Virus record (IMG/VR): IMGVR_UViG_3300025401_000039
Location: 1 to 52,576 of that record
Length of the DNA stretch: 52,576 nt
Reading direction: 5' to 3' (one strand)
Origin: a virus
Lineage: Duplodnaviria > Caudoviricetes
Program-made: the position numbers and the translations under genes
Shown: piece by piece, positions 21,911 to 30,032 of the stretch
How the letters are laid out: the number at the start of each line of letters is the position of its first letter
Position numbering within the stretch: the first letter of the stretch is position 1
Notes under the pieces: model-generated
The model's input: the letters and a program-made list of their open reading frames with translations, nothing else
Told to the model about the DNA's origin: nothing
The model's database searches: none

Positions 21911-22093
21911 TCAAGCACCTGGACAGTCGTTAATATACAACATAGTAACACCATCAAAGGTATCTACTTCTAGCATATCAGCACTCACAGGGCTAGAGTA
22001 CTCCATGTTCATGCCCATATGCACGGGCATGTTGGGATCCATTGTACTCAGGATACGGATCATGTCTGCTACGGTTAGTGTATCGTTTCTCAT
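21911..22093 (-). CDS. Early hypothetical protein
   Basis: Start MRNDT after GGAG SD and promoter. Confidence 0.7.
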   Translation of the reverse strand: MRNDTLTVADMIRILSTMDPNMPVHMGMNMEYSSPVSADMLEVDTFDGVTMLYINDCPGA

Positions 22094-22172
22094 TGTCTGC
22101 TCCTTTTGTTTCTGTATGTGTCTATTATACTGTATTTTGGACACTCAGTCAAATCCCATTCACTTTGGAGGG

Positions 22173-22403
22173 TTAATCCCAATCTTTCTTACCGCCAAAC
22201 TGCTCGTTCCATTGATAGCCTGCTAGGTAGGCTTGGACTTCTTGTGGGCTCATTTGAGCTTCGTTGATACGCTCGCTAGAGCCGGTGTCGCCGATGTAGA
22301 AGTGAGGGCTACGGGGACGATGATACCAACTGTCTGCACTGCCTCTATCAAAAGGCCCGCCGTGTCGTTGATCATAGTTCTTACGGGTTTCTAATGTAAT
22401 CAT
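22173..22403 (-). CDS. Early hypothetical protein
   Basis: HGGPFDRGSADSWY motif; coupled to upstream gene. Confidence 0.75.
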   Translation of the reverse strand: MITLETRKNYDQRHGGPFDRGSADSWYHRPRSPHFYIGDTGSSERINEAQMSPQEVQAYLAGYQWNEQFGGKKDWD

Positions 22404-22774
22404 ACTGTCTCCTTATTGAAGTAACCATAGGGCAAGCCCTGAGTGAAACAGAAATACTCGTAGTCGCCATTGGCGCCTTCAGCATCCATCAACCAAGCAA
22501 TCACTCGCTGACGGTTGGTGCTGGTGTGCATGAGGTTCTCTACACGATCTTCAAATGCCTCAATAGCACGAGCCTCACTGGCCAATTGCTCTTTGTAGTT
22601 GGCTTCGATAGTCCGGCTCAACTGAACGAACTCAGCCTCAAACTCTACTTCTGTCCAATTGGTAGTATCGATACCGCGTGGGCGAACGCCATAGGCATCC
22701 TTATACATATCCCAGTATTGGCAGGCATATTGCTCTAGCACGGACATCTCTTCCCAGCTTTTGAATTCGCTCAT
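22400..22774 (-). CDS. Early hypothetical protein
   Basis: DMYKDAYGVRPRG motif; own promoter and RBS. Confidence 0.8.
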   Translation of the reverse strand: MSEFKSWEEMSVLEQYACQYWDMYKDAYGVRPRGIDTTNWTEVEFEAEFVQLSRTIEANYKEQLASEARAIEAFEDRVENLMHTSTNRQRVIAWLMDAEGANGDYEYFCFTQGLPYGYFNKETV

Positions 22775-22946
22775 TTAGTGCTCCTTTTGTGTCTGTATGT
22801 AAGTATTATAGCAAAGTCTAGCCAAATTGTCAACAACCTTACAGGATGAAAGGGTATTATAGACACGCCCAGCCTTGCCGTCCATCCCGTTGCCTTCGAA
22901 TCATAATTATACTGGATTGGGCGGGGATTGTCAAGTCGTCAAAACC

Positions 22947-22979
22947 AAAAAAAAACGACACATCTTTGGGACGTGTCGT
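22947..22979 (-). terminator. Terminator after tRNA
   Basis: ACGACAC...GTGTCGT stem plus T run on - strand. Confidence 0.75.
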
Positions 22980-22987
22980 CTGTGTAA

Positions 22988-23062
22988 TGGTGGGCCCACC
23001 TGGGTTCGAACCAGGGACCAAGGGATTATGAGTCCCCTGCTCTTCCGCTGAGCTATAGGCCC
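22988..23062 (-). tRNA. tRNA with CAT anticodon, probably tRNA-Ile2 (lysidine type)
   Basis: GGGCCTATAGCTCAG...GACTCATAATCC...GGTTCGAACCC...CCACCA; arm sequence resembles bacterial ileX. Confidence 0.9.
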
Positions 23063-23068
23063 TTGTTC

Positions 23069-23263
23069 TTATCCTATTGGATTGGTATTTCGATAACGTC
23101 TAACTTCTTGTAAGTCATCATCCGTATCTTCTAAGATCCAAATCTCTTCGTTGAACTCTAGCAGATCTTCTGCTACTCGTTCTGCTTCCTTTAGGGTTGG
23201 AACACATTCGAGGAGCTCTTCATGCCCCTCGAATAGTCCCCAAACTTCAAACTGAATGAACAT
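23069..23263 (-). CDS. Small acidic hypothetical protein
   Basis: 64-aa ORF. Confidence 0.6.
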   Translation of the reverse strand: MFIQFEVWGLFEGHEELLECVPTLKEAERVAEDLLEFNEEIWILEDTDDDLQEVRRYRNTNPIG

Positions 23264-23266
23264 AGA

Positions 23267-23629
23267 TTAGAAAGGGATGTTTTCGTCCATGTCAGCTGTA
23301 GGAGCCTTAACAGCCTTAGGTGCTGTAGCCTTAGCTGGCTTCATAACACCCTTTGCGGCAGGCTTAGATGTCTTAGCCTTAGGAGTGTTCTCAGCAATAT
23401 ATTCGGTGATAGTTGCCTGAGCAATTGAATCAGCGAACTCGTCCAACCCCAATAGGATCTTAGCGGCATCCATCTTTGAAACTGAAGCTTCAAGATCAGC
23501 CAAGCGAATGTCAGTATGTCCTGACTTGGCAAGAACCTTAATACGCATCATGTCATTGGCAAAGCGAACTTTGTATGTACCATTCAAATTAGAAATACCT
23601 GCAACCTTAAACAATTTATCTGTAGCCAT
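23267..23629 (-). CDS. Hypothetical protein with Lys/Ala-rich tail ending DENIPF
   Basis: GAGG SD and promoter; SSB-like C-terminal tip. Confidence 0.75.
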   Translation of the reverse strand: MATDKLFKVAGISNLNGTYKVRFANDMMRIKVLAKSGHTDIRLADLEASVSKMDAAKILLGLDEFADSIAQATITEYIAENTPKAKTSKPAAKGVMKPAKATAPKAVKAPTADMDENIPF

Positions 23630-23715
23630 TTTGTTACCTCTGTGTGTGTTAAAAAATATGTTATTGAGCCAATCTCTCTAACATGTTCAAATTATACAAC
23701 TCTTTTGGCGAGTTG

Positions 23716-23976
23716 TCAACCGTTTCTTTTGCGTTTTGGGCGAATATTTGACTGTTGTTCTTTTACAACAGGTCCAAACTCCTTGTTCGTGTAGTAGATA
23801 ATCAAGCTACGCTGAATCATTGTAACCAAATCACCATGATCATCATCCACTACGAACCTAACAGGGCATTGCCCCCATGAGCCTGTAATGGCAAAGTTAT
23901 GATAGTATGACCTATGATCCTTATTCTTAGCATCAAAAACTACGAACGGACGTCCAAATAGTGCGAGTCTACTCAT
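23716..23976 (-). CDS. Early hypothetical protein
   Basis: FDAKNKDHR...WGQCPVRF. Confidence 0.7.
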   Translation of the reverse strand: MSRLALFGRPFVVFDAKNKDHRSYYHNFAITGSWGQCPVRFVVDDDHGDLVTMIQRSLIIYYTNKEFGPVVKEQQSNIRPKRKRNG

Positions 23977-24089
23977 CGTTTTTCACCCATTGACGGATCA
24001 CAGCCTCCAGCTCTTTGAATTGGTATTCGGGCTGTTTGGGTCTAACCTTGTCTTGTTGCTTGGCATCGTGTGCTGTGTTGAGTTCTTTA

Positions 24090-24665
24090 TTAGTCTTCAT
24101 TTTCTTCTTCTTCGTATTCTGCAATCGTTTCTGATATCCCAAACATTTCGTCTAGGGCCTCTGGGATAGCCTCTTTGACAGTCTCTGAAGTGTAACCGCC
24201 AATGTCATAGCAGTCATCTTGGCCGTCTTCCCAAATACCAGCAAATGCCATGCCGGGCTCATAGTAGTAGAGCCTGACTGTGAACCCTTGTTCTATCAAA
24301 TACTCCATAGCACCTGTAGGTGGGCTCCATGCTGAGTCAAAGCCAAAGGTAACATGATCTACATCGCCTTCTAGTTCAATGGTTTCAATGGCATCCACAT
24401 CCCATTTGGTGCCCCACTCATTCACACACCAGTCGTACCAATTGGCATAACCATAGGTGCTGAGATTGTGCATGGTCTGCTCTTGCAGAGCAATCTGTTT
24501 AGGATCGTTGTCATCGCCTACGCGACCCGCTACAATCTGTAGGGCTTCTGGCACTGGCTTGCAGTAGTTCAAGAACTTGCCTTCATTAACCGCCGCAACC
24601 AACTCACGAATCTTGGCTGGGTCGCTGTGTGTGATCTCTACTGTGTTATTGCACCAATTTGGCAT
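24090..24665 (-). CDS. YubB/DUF1281-like ferredoxin-fold protein
   Basis: MPNWCNN, WYDWCVNEWGTKWD, FDSAWSPP, YYEPGMAFAG. Confidence 0.7.
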   Translation of the reverse strand: MPNWCNNTVEITHSDPAKIRELVAAVNEGKFLNYCKPVPEALQIVAGRVGDDNDPKQIALQEQTMHNLSTYGYANWYDWCVNEWGTKWDVDAIETIELEGDVDHVTFGFDSAWSPPTGAMEYLIEQGFTVRLYYYEPGMAFAGIWEDGQDDCYDIGGYTSETVKEAIPEALDEMFGISETIAEYEEEENED

Positions 24666-24666
24666 A

Positions 24667-24933
24667 TTAAACTCCCATTTCAGAAAATGTTACTTTAGGA
24701 TCAATGCTGAGCAACTCGCTAGCACAACGAGTAAGATTACGCATCTTTGCACGAACCACTGACGCAGGCAGTTCGCCATCGCAGGTAAGGTTCTCTGGGC
24801 TCATTTCGCTGTCAATGCTGTCAGCGATGGCCTGACGATCTGCACCGTTCAACAGGCTCAAAGGCTTTTGATTGAATACGGCTCGCCACTTGTTCTTGTT
24901 CTCCACATATTGCTCTAATGTTGCTATGTTCAT
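24667..24933 (-). CDS. Early hypothetical protein
   Basis: SPENLTCDGE motif; own promoter and RBS. Confidence 0.75.
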   Translation of the reverse strand: MNIATLEQYVENKNKWRAVFNQKPLSLLNGADRQAIADSIDSEMSPENLTCDGELPASVVRAKMRNLTRCASELLSIDPKVTFSEMGV

Positions 24934-24968
24934 CTTCGCTCCTTTTTGCTGTGTAAGTAGTTATTATA

Positions 24969-25205
24969 CTAGAGTTTCCTAATCCTGTCAATAACCATGT
25001 TCGCTTCATGGTAATTGTCGGACAAGGACATTTCAGCTTCGATCTTCAATGCTTGAGCCTGCTCACGCAACTCCTGGCTAAAAGCGTTTAAAAGCTCGTG
25101 TGCGTAGTCGATATCATCTGCTGATACCTTACTATGCCAATCTTTAATCGTTGCTTCGTCGGCGTTTAAAAGGAACTCCAAATTAGCCCGATCATGCTCA
25201 TTCAT
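24969..25205 (-). CDS. Early hypothetical protein
   Basis: Likely start MNEHD. Confidence 0.65.
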   Translation of the reverse strand: MNEHDRANLEFLLNADEATIKDWHSKVSADDIDYAHELLNAFSQELREQAQALKIEAEMSLSDNYHEANMVIDRIRKL

Positions 25206-25389
25206 AGTCGCGTCCTTTGTGCTTTTTGTTGCGTTTATACAACACCTTGCTCTCCACCCGTTTGGGTTTGAAGGGCGTGTTCTCCGCAAAGAGAACAAAG
25301 TGTGCTCTTGTCTTTTGTGGTACTTTGATTACAATCTTCATCTCGCTCTCCTTACTATGTCATTATTATAGCAAATTGAGCAGAAGTTG

Positions 25390-25572
25390 TCAACTGTTGA
25401 TGGTCTGATAAGGACTGTGCTCTTCCTCGTCAGCGGCTACATTCACAGCCTCTAACCAATCGTACACCATGCTCAAAGGGATGTCCAATTGAGCCGCGAT
25501 GGATGTGGGCCTGTAGCCCTCAATGTACAGTTGCTCAATATCGTATGCTACTTCTGCTAATTTACTCATCAA
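25390..25572 (-). CDS. Small HTH protein
   Basis: SIAAQLDIPLSMVYDWL. Confidence 0.6.
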   Translation of the reverse strand: MMSKLAEVAYDIEQLYIEGYRPTSIAAQLDIPLSMVYDWLEAVNVAADEEEHSPYQTINS

Positions 25573-25828
25573 AGGCCTCCTCGCCCATTTCAGTTACTCT
25601 TTCTTCCACAACGCCAAGGTCGACGATGCGGGCTGTTTGATCTTCGTTGCTCACGCCCTGAAAGGCTGTACGGAATGACTGATACTCAGCTAGGAAGTCT
25701 AATACATCCTCACGCTCCCAAGTATCAGGAACTTCAAGTTCTTGTGTTAGTAGTGTTTCAACTCGTACTATTTTCATACCTGCTCCTTTAGAGTTAGCCA
25801 TTGCTCGTTTACTTTGAAAGCCTGTCAT
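25562..25828 (-). CDS. Early hypothetical protein
   Basis: ORF in early block. Confidence 0.6.
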   Translation of the reverse strand: MTGFQSKRAMANSKGAGMKIVRVETLLTQELEVPDTWEREDVLDFLAEYQSFRTAFQGVSNEDQTARIVDLGVVEERVTEMGEEAFDE

Positions 25829-26104
25829 TCTGCCTCCGCTGGTTCAAACATACGAGCACCCATATCCATAAAGACGTCGAAGGTCTTAAGGAAGTCCTCA
25901 TCATACTTGTGACGGTTAACTTTAATGGCAAACAGGCCTACTAGGAGGTCTCCATTGCCTACTTCTTTCGCTACTTTTACTAGATGATCAAACATAAGTT
26001 TCGCTCCTTATTGTGTTAATATGTCTATATTATAACGCAGAACTGCTACTACGTCAACCGAATTAGATTGGACTTACATCAGCTTTCGCATGAATGCCTT
26101 AACT

Positions 26105-26179
26105 TGGCGCCGCAGATGGGAATCGAACCCACCTAAGTCTCGCAGACAACGAGTTACCCTCCCAGAGAGCTACTACGGC
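26105..26179 (-). tRNA. Atypical tRNA-Asp(GTC)
   Basis: GCCGTAG/CTGCGGC acceptor, GGTTCGATTCC T-arm, loop TTGTCTG, G discriminator plus CCA. Confidence 0.75.
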
Positions 26180-26183
26180 AAAT

Positions 26184-26251
26184 TGGCGTCCCTACAGGAG
26201 TCTCACCTGCTCACTGCCCTGAGTTGCGAACTCAGCGTGGATTCCCGGGAC
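26184..26251 (-). ncRNA. D-armless tRNA-like RNA
   Basis: GTCCC/GGGAC-GCCA acceptor, CTGAG-TTCGCAA-CTCAG arm, GCAGG-TGAGACT-CCTGT T-like arm. Confidence 0.6.
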
Positions 26252-26259
26252 ATAAACTT

Positions 26260-26470
26260 CAGTTAGAAAAGAACTAAAGGAACCATTGTAGATCTATCTC
26301 TACCACAGGGCAACGTCTGCCTCTGGGCCTCTACGGTCATTACTGCCTACATACTCCGCCGCTACTCCGGATTGCTCCTGTTTCATGCCCCAGCGTCAAG
26401 CGTATCCGTCGATACTGTCCTCTATCTGGGCGCCTAGCAGTGTAGGTAACCTTTAATACTTTTCTAACTG
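26260..26470 (-). ncRNA. About 210-nt structured ncRNA candidate
   Basis: 21-bp terminal stem, internal hairpins, own consensus promoter, no SD after +1. Confidence 0.65.
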
Positions 26471-26641
26471 TTCATGTGCTTATTATAGCACATGAACTAG
26501 TCTCTGTCAATAACCTTACTGTTTGTGTGGTATCTCTTTTGGAGCACCAGGAGCATTACAGCTCTTCAAACCCGCAAAGTGCCATTTTCTACAATAAGTA
26601 CATTCCATTGACTGCTCCTTTGTTGCTAAGTGTTTATTATA

Positions 26642-26980
26642 CTACTCTTCTACTTCTTCGTCAACCACTTCGTTCAAGTGATCAAAACAATCTTGTACAC
26701 GACTTGATTCTGTGTTGAAGAAAGTATAGCTACCACAAGTAACCCTACCTTCGCCCTCATTGATGTACTCAAACCCACCATAGTAGTCGATGGCGCTAGA
26801 GTGTGTAACAGCAATAACCTCTTCATTCCTGTCAATGTACACAGGACCACAGCGCACATCCAAACCCAGTTCAATGGGCGTACAGCGTTCCATCTTGCGT
26901 ACATGACGCTCCACAACCTCATTAACACAATCAATCATGTCCAGGGTTGAATCAAAATCACAATCTGTAAAGTATCCCAC
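26642..26980 (-). CDS. Early hypothetical protein
   Basis: GTG start after GGAGCGA; own promoter. Confidence 0.75.
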   Translation of the reverse strand: MGYFTDCDFDSTLDMIDCVNEVVERHVRKMERCTPIELGLDVRCGPVYIDRNEEVIAVTHSSAIDYYGGFEYINEGEGRVTCGSYTFFNTESSRVQDCFDHLNEVVDEEVEE

Positions 26981-27057
26981 GGTTCGCTCCTTAGTAACTT
27001 AAAAACATAGTATACAACAGAACGGGTACCTTGTCAATACCCGTTCAAGTTGCAGGG

Positions 27058-27549
27058 TTATTCTGCGCACTCCTTTGGGTTGAGTTTACGAATAGCTGGG
27101 GCTAGCTTCTTCCAACGCCCGCCCATCTTTTTGTAGTGCCACTCGCCCGACTGATAGTCGTCTGATGCTTTGTATTTGTAAACATACAAGTACTCGCACC
27201 AGCTACCCTCAAAGTAGTCTTCTGCTTTTTTAAGCGAGGGGAACACTTTAAACGGAGCTGTCTCGCCTCTGTCGCGTGTGTAAAATGTACACTGATTGCC
27301 GTAGAGCTTGTCCCATTCCTCGTCTGTCAACTTAGTATCCAAACGACTAAACGGATGCTCTGCGCCAATCTCAGGGCGCAGGGAGCTAATATCGCCCAGT
27401 GCAATCAAGTTGTTGACTTTGGGACTAGCTGAATAATGCTTTTGAAGAATAGCGCCGTTGTGTTCCAAATACCCGTCCCAGTGACAATAAACTGCGCGAA
27501 CAGTTTTGTTGTAAGGGTTTTGGATAGCAATCATTGAACGTGTACCCAT
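27058..27549 (-). CDS. Conserved-type phage early protein
   Basis: MGTRS...YCHWDGY...GDISSL; own promoter and RBS. Confidence 0.8.
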   Translation of the reverse strand: MGTRSMIAIQNPYNKTVRAVYCHWDGYLEHNGAILQKHYSASPKVNNLIALGDISSLRPEIGAEHPFSRLDTKLTDEEWDKLYGNQCTFYTRDRGETAPFKVFPSLKKAEDYFEGSWCEYLYVYKYKASDDYQSGEWHYKKMGGRWKKLAPAIRKLNPKECAE

Positions 27550-27603
27550 TTATCGCTCCTTAATGTGTTTAAGTGTTAATTATAGCAACTTCTAGCCAAA
27601 CTG

Positions 27604-27813
27604 TCAACCGCAAAACACTTCTTTAGACAAGATCCGGTCCTCAACCAGCTCGTGTGCCAAGTTAAGGGCCATAGTGGCGCAAGTGATAGCAATAATGCGC
27701 TCTTGCCCATTAAAGCGTTGACAGTACTCCATCAGCTGGTCCAAGCTCTCTGGGGTTGCAAACAATCCGGTCTTTGGGATTGGGTTTTGAACAACGTCGT
27801 AAATGCCTGACAT
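27604..27813 (-). CDS. Early hypothetical protein
   Basis: Own promoter and RBS. Confidence 0.75.
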   Translation of the reverse strand: MSGIYDVVQNPIPKTGLFATPESLDQLMEYCQRFNGQERIIAITCATMALNLAHELVEDRILSKEVFCG

Positions 27814-27870
27814 AAGTATCGCTCCTTTTGTTAGTTGATGTTAGTATTATAGTTGAAACCTGGTTAGTTG

Positions 27871-28095
27871 TCAACCAAAGTACTTGTATAACCCTATTGC
27901 GCAAATGGTTATTGACACGCAATTTGTCAACGTTTGTGGCCAGTTGCGCACACGTAAGCTCCATATCATGTACAGCGTTCCCCCACAGAACCCTGCCAGT
28001 ACGCTGTAGCTGTTGTACTCAGGGAAGAACGACATTAATGTATACATGCACATGAAGCAGGCCGTGCCGGCCCACTGCACTGCGTTATTAAACAT
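27871..28095 (-). CDS. Small membrane protein
   Basis: Three short hydrophobic segments. Confidence 0.6.
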   Translation of the reverse strand: MFNNAVQWAGTACFMCMYTLMSFFPEYNSYSVLAGFCGGTLYMIWSLRVRNWPQTLTNCVSITICAIGLYKYFG

Positions 28096-28312
28096 CTAAG
28101 TCAAACTCCGCATCCTCTACTACTGTCTCTAACTGTACAGCTAGCGTCTCTAGCATCTCTTTGCTTAATGTGTCAAGTGTCTCGTCATAAAAGTGTTGCA
28201 TTAAAGCCGCATCTAGTGCTACATGCCCGTCTAAATAGTCAAGCCCGCTATCGCCCATGTCGTAAATTTTCCCAAATGCTTTATTAATGCGTTTTACTAG
28301 TGCTTTTGACAT
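28088..28312 (-). CDS. Early hypothetical protein
   Basis: Own promoter and RBS. Confidence 0.75.
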   Translation of the reverse strand: MSKALVKRINKAFGKIYDMGDSGLDYLDGHVALDAALMQHFYDETLDTLSKEMLETLAVQLETVVEDAEFDLDV

Positions 28313-28402
28313 TGTGTCGCTCCTTTGTTGCTATGTGTGTATTATACTGTCGTTATCTCAAATTGTCAATAACCCTACGCACTGTAGGGCTATTTGTTGT
28401 TA

Positions 28403-28663
28403 TTAGTCTACAAAGACTATGTTGTTACTGCGTATAGTATTGACAGCGTGGGGTAGTACTTTAGCTAACTCTTCTTGTAAGTTTTCTGCAAGTAAGTCCC
28501 CACTAACATACGCACATTTTGCTTGTGTTGGGAACGCATATTTTACTACTTCTGTATTACCAATTTTTTTAATTTGCTTGTGTGCGTTAAACGCGACTAC
28601 GAGCTTGTATGCTTGTACTTTTTTGTTATAAACTAGTTTAGCGTGTGCAAGTGTGTTAAACAT
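28403..28663 (-). CDS. Early hypothetical protein
   Basis: Own promoter and RBS. Confidence 0.7.
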   Translation of the reverse strand: MFNTLAHAKLVYNKKVQAYKLVVAFNAHKQIKKIGNTEVVKYAFPTQAKCAYVSGDLLAENLQEELAKVLPHAVNTIRSNNIVFVD

Positions 28664-28741
28664 AAGAGCTCCTTTTTGCTGTGTATGTGTGTATTATACG
28701 GCATTTTGGGCGGGCTGTCAATAACCCGCCACACAGTAGGG

Positions 28742-29056
28742 TTATATGCAACAAAAAGCATTACTGGGAATTAAATTATTACTTTCTATGTACTGTAGCA
28801 CCTCTATGTAGTACTCCCGTACAAAAGTGTCCTGTTGCATAATACTATCGTGTAACTTTTGCACATTATTGTCCGTATTAAATGCCGCTAGCGCATTAAT
28901 ATTATACTGTATGTCTAGCGTGTGGAACTGTAAATTGTCCACTGTAATGGGCCTGTTAACACCGTGTTGTGTAGTACTAAAGTCTATGTAATCCTGTGTA
29001 GTTTTAAGTACTAGCATGTTAATTTGTAGTTTATGGGCGGGTGTTAGTTTACGCAT
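28742..29056 (-). CDS. Early hypothetical protein
   Basis: Own promoter, AAGGA SD. Confidence 0.7.
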   Translation of the reverse strand: MRKLTPAHKLQINMLVLKTTQDYIDFSTTQHGVNRPITVDNLQFHTLDIQYNINALAAFNTDNNVQKLHDSIMQQDTFVREYYIEVLQYIESNNLIPSNAFCCI

Positions 29057-29128
29057 TGTATTTCCTTTAAAATTGTATTATACAACATTTTGGGCCGACT
29101 GTCAAAGACCCTGCCGACCTCATGGGAT

Positions 29129-29157
29129 TTGACAGTTTGGGATTTTGGTGCTATAAT
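29129..29157 (+). promoter_or_regulatory. Consensus sigma70 promoter pointing into DnaA boxes
   Basis: TTGACA-17-TATAAT, back to back with - strand promoter at 29077-29105. Confidence 0.85.
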
Positions 29158-29241
29158 AGTGGTATGGTTCGAACAGCAGACACTGGGGATGGACGGCGAG
29201 GGCGGGCAACGATTTTTAAGTTAGTAAGCGCCAACTAACTA

Positions 29242-29352
29242 TGTGGATAACGTGTGGATAACTTTTGAGACGGGTTTTGGTTGCGCGCCCCTGTAACGCT
29301 AGATTGACAGTGGATAAACTTGTGGATAAAGTTATTAACAAAGTTATCCACA
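29242..29352. promoter_or_regulatory. DnaA-box cluster
   Basis: TGTGGATAA at 29242, 29253, 29321; TTATCCACA at 29344; near matches at 29309 and 29332. Confidence 0.85.
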
Positions 29353-29752
29353 TAAACCTGGTTGACAAAACGGGTTTGGACTGGGCAAGGTCCCGGGCCC
29401 GAACTGTGGCTATTATTCTTCCGAATCCCCGTGTATTGTTACCTTATAGTAGTAACGAGGCAATGGAGTACTGATAAAGTCACTGGCTTCATACTGTTGA
29501 TCAAAGGTAAATGTGTCCATGTCACACGAGGAATCATTATGTTTGAATACAGTAATAACACCACCCGCATCTACCTTTACATGCGCTTGATGTGTGGTTA
29601 GCTGTATAACTACTCTAGTAGTGATCATATAGTGTTCTCCTTAAAGTATTTACACAGTTCGCTACTAAACGAGCCATTAAGAGTGGTTAGCATAGCAACA
29701 CTGCCACTTAGTGGTTCTGCACTAGTGCGAGGTCTAAAAGTATAGTGTACAT

Positions 29753-30032
29753 TAAGTGTGATAAAGTGTGAAATAGATCTCCCCACCCTGCGTATAGAGT
29801 CATTGACAGGGATCTAGTGGGGAGAAAAGTGTTGAAAAGTGTGACAAAGTGCAATAAAGTGTGACAGATTTGGGATTCTGCGTCACAATAGCGGCCAGGG
29901 TGGGCTAGGTTAGAGTCTACGTTTGAGAACGGGTGTGGTGACGAGAGGCTATGCTGCAATGGTTACTCCCACATTTCCCACATTTCCCACATTTCTCACC
30001 ATTCTCACCATTCTCCCATCTTTCTCACATTC
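29753..30032. repeat. Short repeat arrays (AAAGTGTGA-like; TTCCCACAT/TTCTCACCA-like)
   Basis: About 10-bp period copies at 29753-29772 and 29826-29865; 9-bp period run at about 29967-30032. Confidence 0.75.

Follow-up and report, generated by a model that had tools for sequence, protein, structure and literature searches.

The window, that is, the whole stretch of DNA analysed here, is a 52.6-kb fragment of an IMG/VR virus genome with an estimated completeness of 14%. It carries several replication genes (SSB, a UvsX-like recombinase, helicases and a primase), and its DnaB-type helicase shares 48-54% identity with the homologues of the jumbo phages Atu_ph07 and PA5oct. This report concerns a short locus on the minus strand, where a promoter is followed by a structured RNA, a tRNA-like element, a tRNA-Asp gene and a small GNRA-capped hairpin, in that order. 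A Pfam search of the flanking ORFs (26642-26980 and 27058-27549) gave no match. The features of the locus are the following:

26482-26510, minus strand: sigma-70-type promoter (TTGACA at 26510-26505, 17-nt spacer, TATAAT at 26487-26482, TG before the -10)
26470-26497, unstranded: perfect 11-bp inverted repeat around the -10 hexamer (arms 26497-26487 and 26480-26470)
26260-26470, minus strand: structured RNA of about 211 nt
26184-26251, minus strand: tRNA-like element of 68 nt ending in GCCA (ARAGORN in four modes, and its fold)
26105-26179, minus strand: tRNA-Asp (GUC) with anticodon loop UUGUCUG (tRNA match of 34.3 bits), downstream of the RNA in the same orientation
26056-26104, minus strand: small hairpin with a GAAA loop, then UAAGUCCAAUC

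The promoter had been called perfect in the initial annotation of this DNA, and it does match the consensus at 12 of 12 positions, with no SD or start codon after it. Transcription of the structured RNA would start near 26476-26474. A conserved ORF was sought as a competing explanation of the region, and none of at least 30 aa occurs on either strand of 26267-26475. Between 22 and 30 kb the window holds 34 promoter-like sites vs 14.8 expected, and 12 perfect TTGACA-17-TATAAT sites (11 on the minus strand and one on the plus strand). Judging by these sites, 22-30 kb has the look of an early region read by the host polymerase. The minus-strand perfect promoters of this region (22000-30000) stand ahead of small ORFs; the promoter at 26510-26482 stands ahead of none.

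The -10 hexamer had also been placed inside an inverted repeat, which proves to be a perfect one of 11 nt. Of the 31 relatives with a promoter, 10 have the repeat, in either of two versions (GTTCATGTGC and GTCTATGTGC) whose symmetry is kept by paired changes; it may be the operator of a dimeric regulator. The transcript would include its downstream arm alone. Many promoters of the family are followed on the 3' side by a shared start region (...ACAUAG...).

Downstream of the RNA, the tRNA-like element combines a 5-bp acceptor-like stem (GUCCC/GGGAC), a T-arm-like hairpin, a 3' GCCA and a 7-bp stem with the loop region UUCGCAA (anticodon-like CGC). ARAGORN made no tRNA call for 26184-26251 in any of four modes. 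The element would be co-transcribed with the structured RNA, and it also lies 3' of the RNA in two relatives (L009 and L077). The tRNA-Asp of the window is unusual in having U at anticodon-loop positions 32 and 37. The hairpin module past it (26056-26104) may be a processing or termination signal; similar modules trail the RNA or the tRNA-like element in L009, L077 and L080.

The RNA itself is about 211 nt long in the window (26470-26260) and 170-215 nt across the family described below. Its overall fold is a three-way junction at which three elements meet: the closing stem P1, which is long and AU-rich, the 5' domain with P2-P6, and the 3' domain with P7-P8. The parts, all on the minus strand, are:

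26450-26470, minus strand: P1, 5' strand of the closing stem, 21 bp and AU-rich, paired with 26260-26280
26260-26280, minus strand: P1, 3' strand, partner of 26450-26470
26447-26449, minus strand: J1/2 junction strand UUA, within the GGUUACC block
26346-26446, minus strand: 5' domain, enclosed by P2 (model R1 and alignment A5)
26446-26442 with 26350-26346, minus strand: P2, CCTAC/GTAGG, with covariation
26440-26436 with 26360-26356, minus strand: P3, with covariation
26433-26426 with 26393-26387, minus strand: P4, CCCAG/CTGGG, with covariation
26415-26402, minus strand: P5 hairpin, GTATC/GATAC, with covariation
26406-26410, minus strand: first GACGG loop, capping P5 (demanded by the search pattern)
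26386-26382, minus strand: joining strand AUGAA between P4 and P6 (AYGAA in the family alignment)
26380-26367, minus strand: P6 hairpin, with a GCAA loop at 26375-26372
26338-26343, minus strand: GUAAUG junction strand from P2 to the 3' domain (its TAAT was in the search pattern)
26288-26334, minus strand: 3' domain (alignment A6)
26334-26330 with 26292-26288, minus strand: P7, GTAGA/TCTAC
26327-26303, minus strand: P8 hairpin, with GGCA/TGCC as its top
26313-26317, minus strand: second GACG loop (GACGU in the window), capping P8, with a counterpart in 61 of 61 members
26302-26293, minus strand: conserved strand UAGAGAUAGA of the 3' domain (alignment A6)

Most of these helices had been picked out from the single sequence in the initial annotation, and the picks were sound. 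The distant arms of P1 pair as had been described, with 19 Watson-Crick pairs, one G-U (on the minus strand) and one mismatch, a U-U, over 21 nt, so that 20 of 21 positions are paired; they enclose 169 nt of GC-richer sequence. The proposed CCTACA/TGTAGG helix corresponds to P2, CCCAG/CTGGG to P4, GTATC/GATAC to P5, GTAGA/TCTAC to P7 and GGCA/TGCC to the top of P8, and each shows compensatory changes in relatives. In the family, P3 terminates in a constant U-G pair, and P4 is a long helix with an internal loop, reached via an AG strand and bearing P5. The minimum free energy of the single sequence is -72.5 kcal/mol (z = -2.89), and 1 of 200 shuffled sequences was equally stable. On its own this signal is modest, and the strength of the case lies in the comparison of the family.

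Relatives were retrieved with a 112-aa upstream ORF as a handle, which yielded 52 related loci; nhmmer found the RNA in nine of these 52 loci with the neighbouring protein. A motif taken from the alignment of the nhmmer loci was then scanned over IMG/VR and gave 90 stretches. Together the two sources supplied 60 distinct 5'-domain sequences besides that of the window. A covariance model of the 5' domain (R1; 119 positions, 28 pairs) matched 61 of 62 sources, the sole miss being L062, a spurious AT-rich match to the motif. The structure in R1 was written by hand because plain alignments misaligned the variable helices: on plain MAFFT alignments of 61 or 23 sequences, RNAalifold recovered only some of the helices.

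The covariation in this family is strong. In the alignment of the 5' domain (A5), which was fitted to R1 and thus favours the structure, 95.1% of pair cells are paired and 22 of 28 pairs have changed on both sides. Its covariation score is 0.566, vs 0.177 for shuffled alignments (0 of 500 reach the score) and about 0.05 when the partners are slid. The covariation of P3 and P5 is already visible on a plain MAFFT alignment. For the 3' domain, a plain MAFFT alignment of the 17 members with a window-type 3' domain (A6) has 98.7% of pair cells paired and 9 of 14 pairs changed on both sides, and again none of 500 shuffles attains the score. Moreover, G-U pairs outnumber A-C mismatches by 66 to 9 in P1 and by 191 to 17 in the 5' domain, and selection therefore acts on an RNA read from the promoter strand. 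The RNA is non-coding, is conserved as a fold rather than as a sequence and is read from the minus strand. With no ORF of at least 30 aa and strong covariation in its family, the element was rightly described at the outset as a promoter-driven, structured non-coding RNA.

Different parts of the RNA vary to different extents. P1 has 18-30 bp in 34 of the 52 members with a placeable 3' partner, is 69% A-U and occurs in several unrelated sequence versions among clades; in 16 of the 52 it is short (3-10 bp). The search pattern demanded GGTTACC, TAGG, the first GACGG and TAAT, and the invariance of these four is partly built in. In particular, the GGUUACC block is in every member, having been part of the pattern for 52 of them, and its invariance, like that of the other three, is independent in the nine nhmmer-found members only. 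The base 5' of the first GACGG loop is C in 44 of 61 members and U in 17. P6 is mostly capped by a GNRA or UUCG loop; four members (L063, L065, L075 and L115) have, where P6 would be, a short hairpin with a third CGACGG motif. The build of the 3' domain differs between clades, and a GACG(G/U/A) hairpin loop is present there in 61 of 61 members, though it was absent from the search pattern. This second loop reads GACGG in 36 members, GACGU in 20 and GACGA in five, and it is borne on 30 distinct stems.

The RNA was searched for widely. Rfam 15 at gathering thresholds gave no match in the whole window except a tRNA. With E values up to 10, the stretch 25900-26700 gave only the tRNA-Asp and two chance matches that lie off the RNA or on the wrong strand, and 11 homologous loci gave no match overlapping the RNA. 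The failure of the initial annotation to assign a known family is thus borne out by Rfam 15. Using blastn, three family members had no match among 50,697 GenBank phage records, and a search with R1 did not find the RNA in Atu_ph07, PA5oct, Phosso or Vibrio phage 2.275.O. A lone jumbo-phage match to R1 (E 0.147) was discarded; it falls inside coding sequence with no tRNA nearby. Likewise, 11 pattern matches in bacterial and archaeal genomes (one genome per species, 185,579 species) were all rejected by the model. A search of 43 further whole records with R1 found four members, all of which also fit the search pattern, which lends the constancy of the pattern blocks some further support. We found no description of this RNA family in the openly accessible literature.

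As far as these searches extend, the family is phage-specific and comes from uncultivated freshwater jumbo phages only, and on this ground the proposal of a new class of phage non-coding RNA can be upheld. The RNA occurs once in each of five large records and once in the window. It is present in only one of six related records with a completeness of 90% or more, so it is accessory as well as single-copy.

The stretch was found at high word share in 14 freshwater DNA runs, and at a word share of 0.21-0.39 in six lake metatranscriptome runs. Contigs from all four of the lake metatranscriptome runs examined cover parts of 26176-26608, at a depth of 2-9 in the RNA libraries that is like that of neighbouring genes, and they could be DNA carry-over. 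These contigs speak to presence in RNA libraries only: gaps in their cover are uninformative, and their depth cannot rank the RNA against its neighbours.

The genomic setting of the family is variable, with tRNA genes as a recurring element. Of the 61 members, 31 have a consensus promoter of their own no more than 80 nt upstream. Same-strand tRNAs within 300 nt are found on the downstream side in 20 members and on the upstream side in 10, and several of these tRNAs adjoin P1 at -6 to +7 nt. Many members have no tRNA within reach and others are embedded in tRNA arrays. For example, in L127 the RNA stands at the head of an array of about 25 tRNAs; in two of the large records (G001 and G003) the main tRNA array is 80-110 kb from the RNA, and in larger records of the window type the RNA lies in the early region with one tRNA or none beside it. 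The RNA had been said to head a tRNA-like operon. This holds in the window, where the RNA, the tRNA-like element and tRNA-Asp follow one another, and fails as a general rule, with an own promoter in 31 of 61 members and others inside arrays, without a tRNA or far from the array. What follows the RNA is a tRNA or a fresh promoter, never a regulated-looking ORF.

In five array-embedded members (L065, L075, L099, L102 and L129) the 5' strand of P1 starts inside the encoded CCA of the upstream tRNA (-3 to -6), and the tRNA end would therefore pair with UGG at the 3' end of the RNA in a precursor. Short conserved non-coding modules also stand directly downstream of the RNA, examples being ...UUACAGGGUG..GGC...UUAAAC and GCGGAUAGGGUCAAGUGCGAUCCUGUAG; they occur in three sets of loci (L002, L004, L015 and L057; L008, L058, L076 and L098; L017, L060 and L132).

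The tRNA-Asp gene is the steadiest neighbour of the RNA. Of the 21 loci with downstream tRNAs, 16 have tRNA-Asp in one of the first three places, and it is the sole neighbouring tRNA in the window, L015, L057 and L138, each time with the odd UUGUCU(A/G) loop. This loop type belongs to 6 of the 18 distinct tRNA-Asp(GUC) genes of family contigs; CUGUCAC accounts for 11. Two contigs carry a UUGUCU(A/G) tRNA-Asp plus a normal CUGUCAC copy. For array-embedded members, the immediate neighbour is more often tRNA-Glu.

What, then, might the RNA do? On balance, we think it probable that it is a stable, trans-acting structured RNA of an uncatalogued family in freshwater jumbo phages, which presents its two GACG loops to a partner. 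The host RNA polymerase would transcribe it early from the consensus promoter, alone or together with tRNAs. Its release from the precursor would be the work of the nucleases that process the tRNAs on either side (RNase P and 3' trimming), with RNase III acting on P1 as a possible addition. P1 would lock and protect both ends of the RNA, and the compact core would serve as a two-handed binding platform whose GACG loops grip a dimeric or repeated partner. That partner would most likely be a host or phage protein, a preference we hold because repeated identical loops usually signal dimer binding; the GUC anticodon loop of tRNA-Asp is the alternative. Within the RNA itself, the fifth base of the second loop was compared by mutual information with the columns of the 5' domain, and no Watson-Crick-like partner and no tertiary covariation emerged.

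Among the alternatives, binding to tRNA-Asp fares best, though we regard it as rather unlikely. Here the GACG loops would be mimics of Asp codons, and the RNA would hold, chaperone, sense or sequester tRNA-Asp, the odd phage isoform with loop UUGUCUR included. GAC is the complement of the anticodon GUC, and all of GACGG can pair with loop positions 36-32. The loops are constant and their stems variable, as codon display would have it, and the neighbourhood described above fits as well: the presence of tRNA-Asp in the first three downstream positions, its place as sole neighbour in four promoter-driven loci despite different spacers, and the odd isoform next to the RNA in the same four loci. 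This neighbourhood may, however, be inherited gene order, and in arrays the nearest tRNA is more often tRNA-Glu. A 5-nt loop holds three triplets, which puts a chance match to a neighbouring tRNA at about 1/10 by our own estimate. Details of the pairing also count against it: a kissing contact of five pairs leaves a pentaloop little room, most second loops have the base before GAC tied up in the stem, and the loop has G where A would best pair with U33. Nor was there a T-box match. In the most specific form of this idea the RNA would catch tRNA-Asp, its two loops gripping two molecules (those of the host or the UUGUCUR type of the phage) in order to sequester, protect or deliver them; we give this form the same low likelihood.

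An unlikely alternative is that the RNA acts in cis alone, as a processing or spacer module in which P1 is an RNase III site and the core organises tRNA maturation, with no role in trans. The P1 of 18-30 bp in 34 of 52 members speaks for it, as do the members that abut tRNAs at -6 to +7 nt. Nevertheless, a core of about 170 nt with constant junctions and loops across diverged clades exceeds the needs of a cleavage site. In G001 and G003 the RNA is 80-110 kb from the main tRNA array, and many other members have no tRNA in reach. The model for such a module is the rRNA operon, where sequences flanking a stable RNA form an RNase III stalk of at least 20 bp. A flanking duplex of this type (about 20 bp or more) is present in 34 of the 52 placeable members and absent from 16; since P1 has only 3-10 bp in those 16, cutting by RNase III cannot be general. 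In addition, no RNase III gene was found in the five large records, in further contrast to the likeness in the duplex.

About equally improbable is a ribozyme (self-cleaving or other) or a ligand-binding RNA, in which the constant junction nucleotides would form an active site or a pocket. A multi-helix junction, constant unpaired strands (UUA, AG, AYGAA and GUAAUG) and a GNRA or UUCG loop on P6 are typical of such RNAs, and the size is in the range of the larger ribozymes. Against this, no ribozyme or riboswitch family matched at E values up to 10, nothing regulated-looking lies downstream (a tRNA or a fresh promoter does) and the repeated identical loops suggest binding over catalysis. The T-box leader, which is recognised by a specifier codon loop, a UGGN bulge that pairs with the 3' end of the tRNA and a terminator or regulated gene downstream, was considered and rejected on similar grounds: there is no Rfam match, a tRNA or a new promoter follows instead of a regulated ORF, and the GAC loops are a likeness in codon display only.

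Still less probable is a self-assembling RNA, whose copies would join via their loops into a ring or cage like phi29 pRNA, ROOL and GOLLD. The combination of a three-way junction, a terminal helix and two constant loops is suggestive, and the second loop contains the self-complementary ACGU in the 20 of 61 members with GACGU. Yet the two loops are identical in sequence, without complementarity between them, and GACGG (36 of 61) is not self-complementary. In phi29 pRNA, too, the ends pair into a helix, and there are a three-way junction and two loops, which are functional and mutually complementary. Our RNA is like it as a phage RNA of this general plan, but both loops are GACG and the setting is one of tRNA and early genes, not packaging. 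The RNA is also 3-4 times smaller than ROOL and GOLLD, and Rfam gave no match to ROOL, GOLLD or pRNA. The genomic niche is nevertheless shared, in that ROOL and GOLLD are, according to PMC12286853, RNAs of phages and prophages with unknown function that often lie near tRNA islands.

A miniature inverted-repeat element or a chance palindrome, whose terminal repeats would only mimic a stem, can be dismissed as barely credible: a short core does lie between 21-30 bp terminal inverted repeats, but the element is single-copy (in five of five records and in the window), it is the core that is conserved and the repeats that change from clade to clade, the reverse of a transposon, and G-U far exceeds A-C with compensatory changes throughout, as expected of selection on RNA from one strand.

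The initial annotation had suggested a protein sponge on account of several GGA motifs, and this suggestion found no support. As we read the fold, each GGA triplet in the window falls in a helix or a junction strand, away from the conserved loops. The recurring loops are GACG(G/U/A), GNRA or UUCG, and a sponge of the CsrA/RsmA type, which would need several GGA motifs exposed in hairpin loops, is not supported.

Comparison with known systems places the RNA in company rather than in a family. The T4 RNAs RNAC and RNAD are small non-tRNA RNAs that adjoin phage tRNA genes, 1-6 nt from their neighbours in the T4 annotation, and the array-embedded members of our family sit in the same way. They differ in length (139 and 119 nt vs 170-215 nt), and the new RNA is marked by its three-way junction and GACG loops. 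RNAC ends, in our reading, in a tRNA-like T arm. On the T4 tRNA region, R1 with its filters off gave a best score of 6.1 bits (E 1.6), off both rnaC and rnaD. The roles of RNAC and RNAD are given as unknown in PMC3014915 and PMC9697503.

ROOL and GOLLD are alike in having elaborate conserved folds without a known protein partner and in being phage-borne near tRNA genes, a likeness of niche and not of membership. They are about 600-800 nt or more and form cages, whereas the new RNA has about 170-215 nt. Their Rfam models (presumably RF03087 for ROOL and RF01998-type models for GOLLD) had no match in the window or in the 11 homologous loci. Judged by sequence and fold, the RNA is thus a new family within a known, poorly understood kind, the phage RNAs beside tRNA genes, and we class it so because it is kin in kind to RNAC/RNAD and ROOL/GOLLD and matches none of them in sequence or fold.

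The bacterial Y RNA (YrlA) is similar in that its 5' and 3' ends pair into a long stem that closes a structured module. A Y RNA would be expected to have a conserved Ro-binding sequence in this stem and a tRNA-like module. Membership was rejected: RF02553 had no match on the RNA, and weak YrlA matches fall on tRNAs. The sequence of P1 varies between clades, so there is no fixed Ro-binding site. Rsr (TROVE, PF05731) was found in none of the five large phage records, one of them 96% complete, with control genomes positive; a host-encoded Rsr would be possible. Several likenesses of a few bases were also dropped, namely those to RNase P RNA, the tmRNA D-loop motif UCGACGG, a 16S rRNA antisense (GGUUACC), boxB-like pentaloops, put-type antitermination and hammerhead-like junctions.

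To our knowledge, few structured RNAs beyond tRNAs have been described in phages, and almost none has a known role. RNAC and RNAD have gone unexplained for decades, and the cages of ROOL and GOLLD have been seen only recently. At about 200 nt, the present family is a compact addition to this group: its covariation is very strong, its three-way junction is clear, and the repetition of one loop motif suggests a defined way of binding. The size of the RNA suits it to chemical probing, crystallography, cryo-EM and pull-downs, and its covariance model is ready for the annotation of jumbo-phage contigs in freshwater metagenomes. Since the RNA is accessory, driven by an early promoter and linked to tRNAs, its function likely touches the management of translation by the phage or the evasion of tRNA-targeting defences. 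If the capture of tRNA-Asp were true, the RNA would be a trans-acting, codon-displaying RNA that could shield the tRNA from a host anticodon nuclease; we know of no precedent for a codon-displaying RNA outside T-box leaders.

Clustering of the 1862 ORFs from the 61 loci gave no protein neighbour with a constant position. The commonest neighbour is a small membrane protein, which is present in 35 of 61 loci at about -2000 to +2900. In the window it lies at 27871-28095 on the minus strand and has about 75 aa with a conserved ...W..R..N.PQ... motif, which may resemble that of PQ-loop/SemiSWEET proteins.
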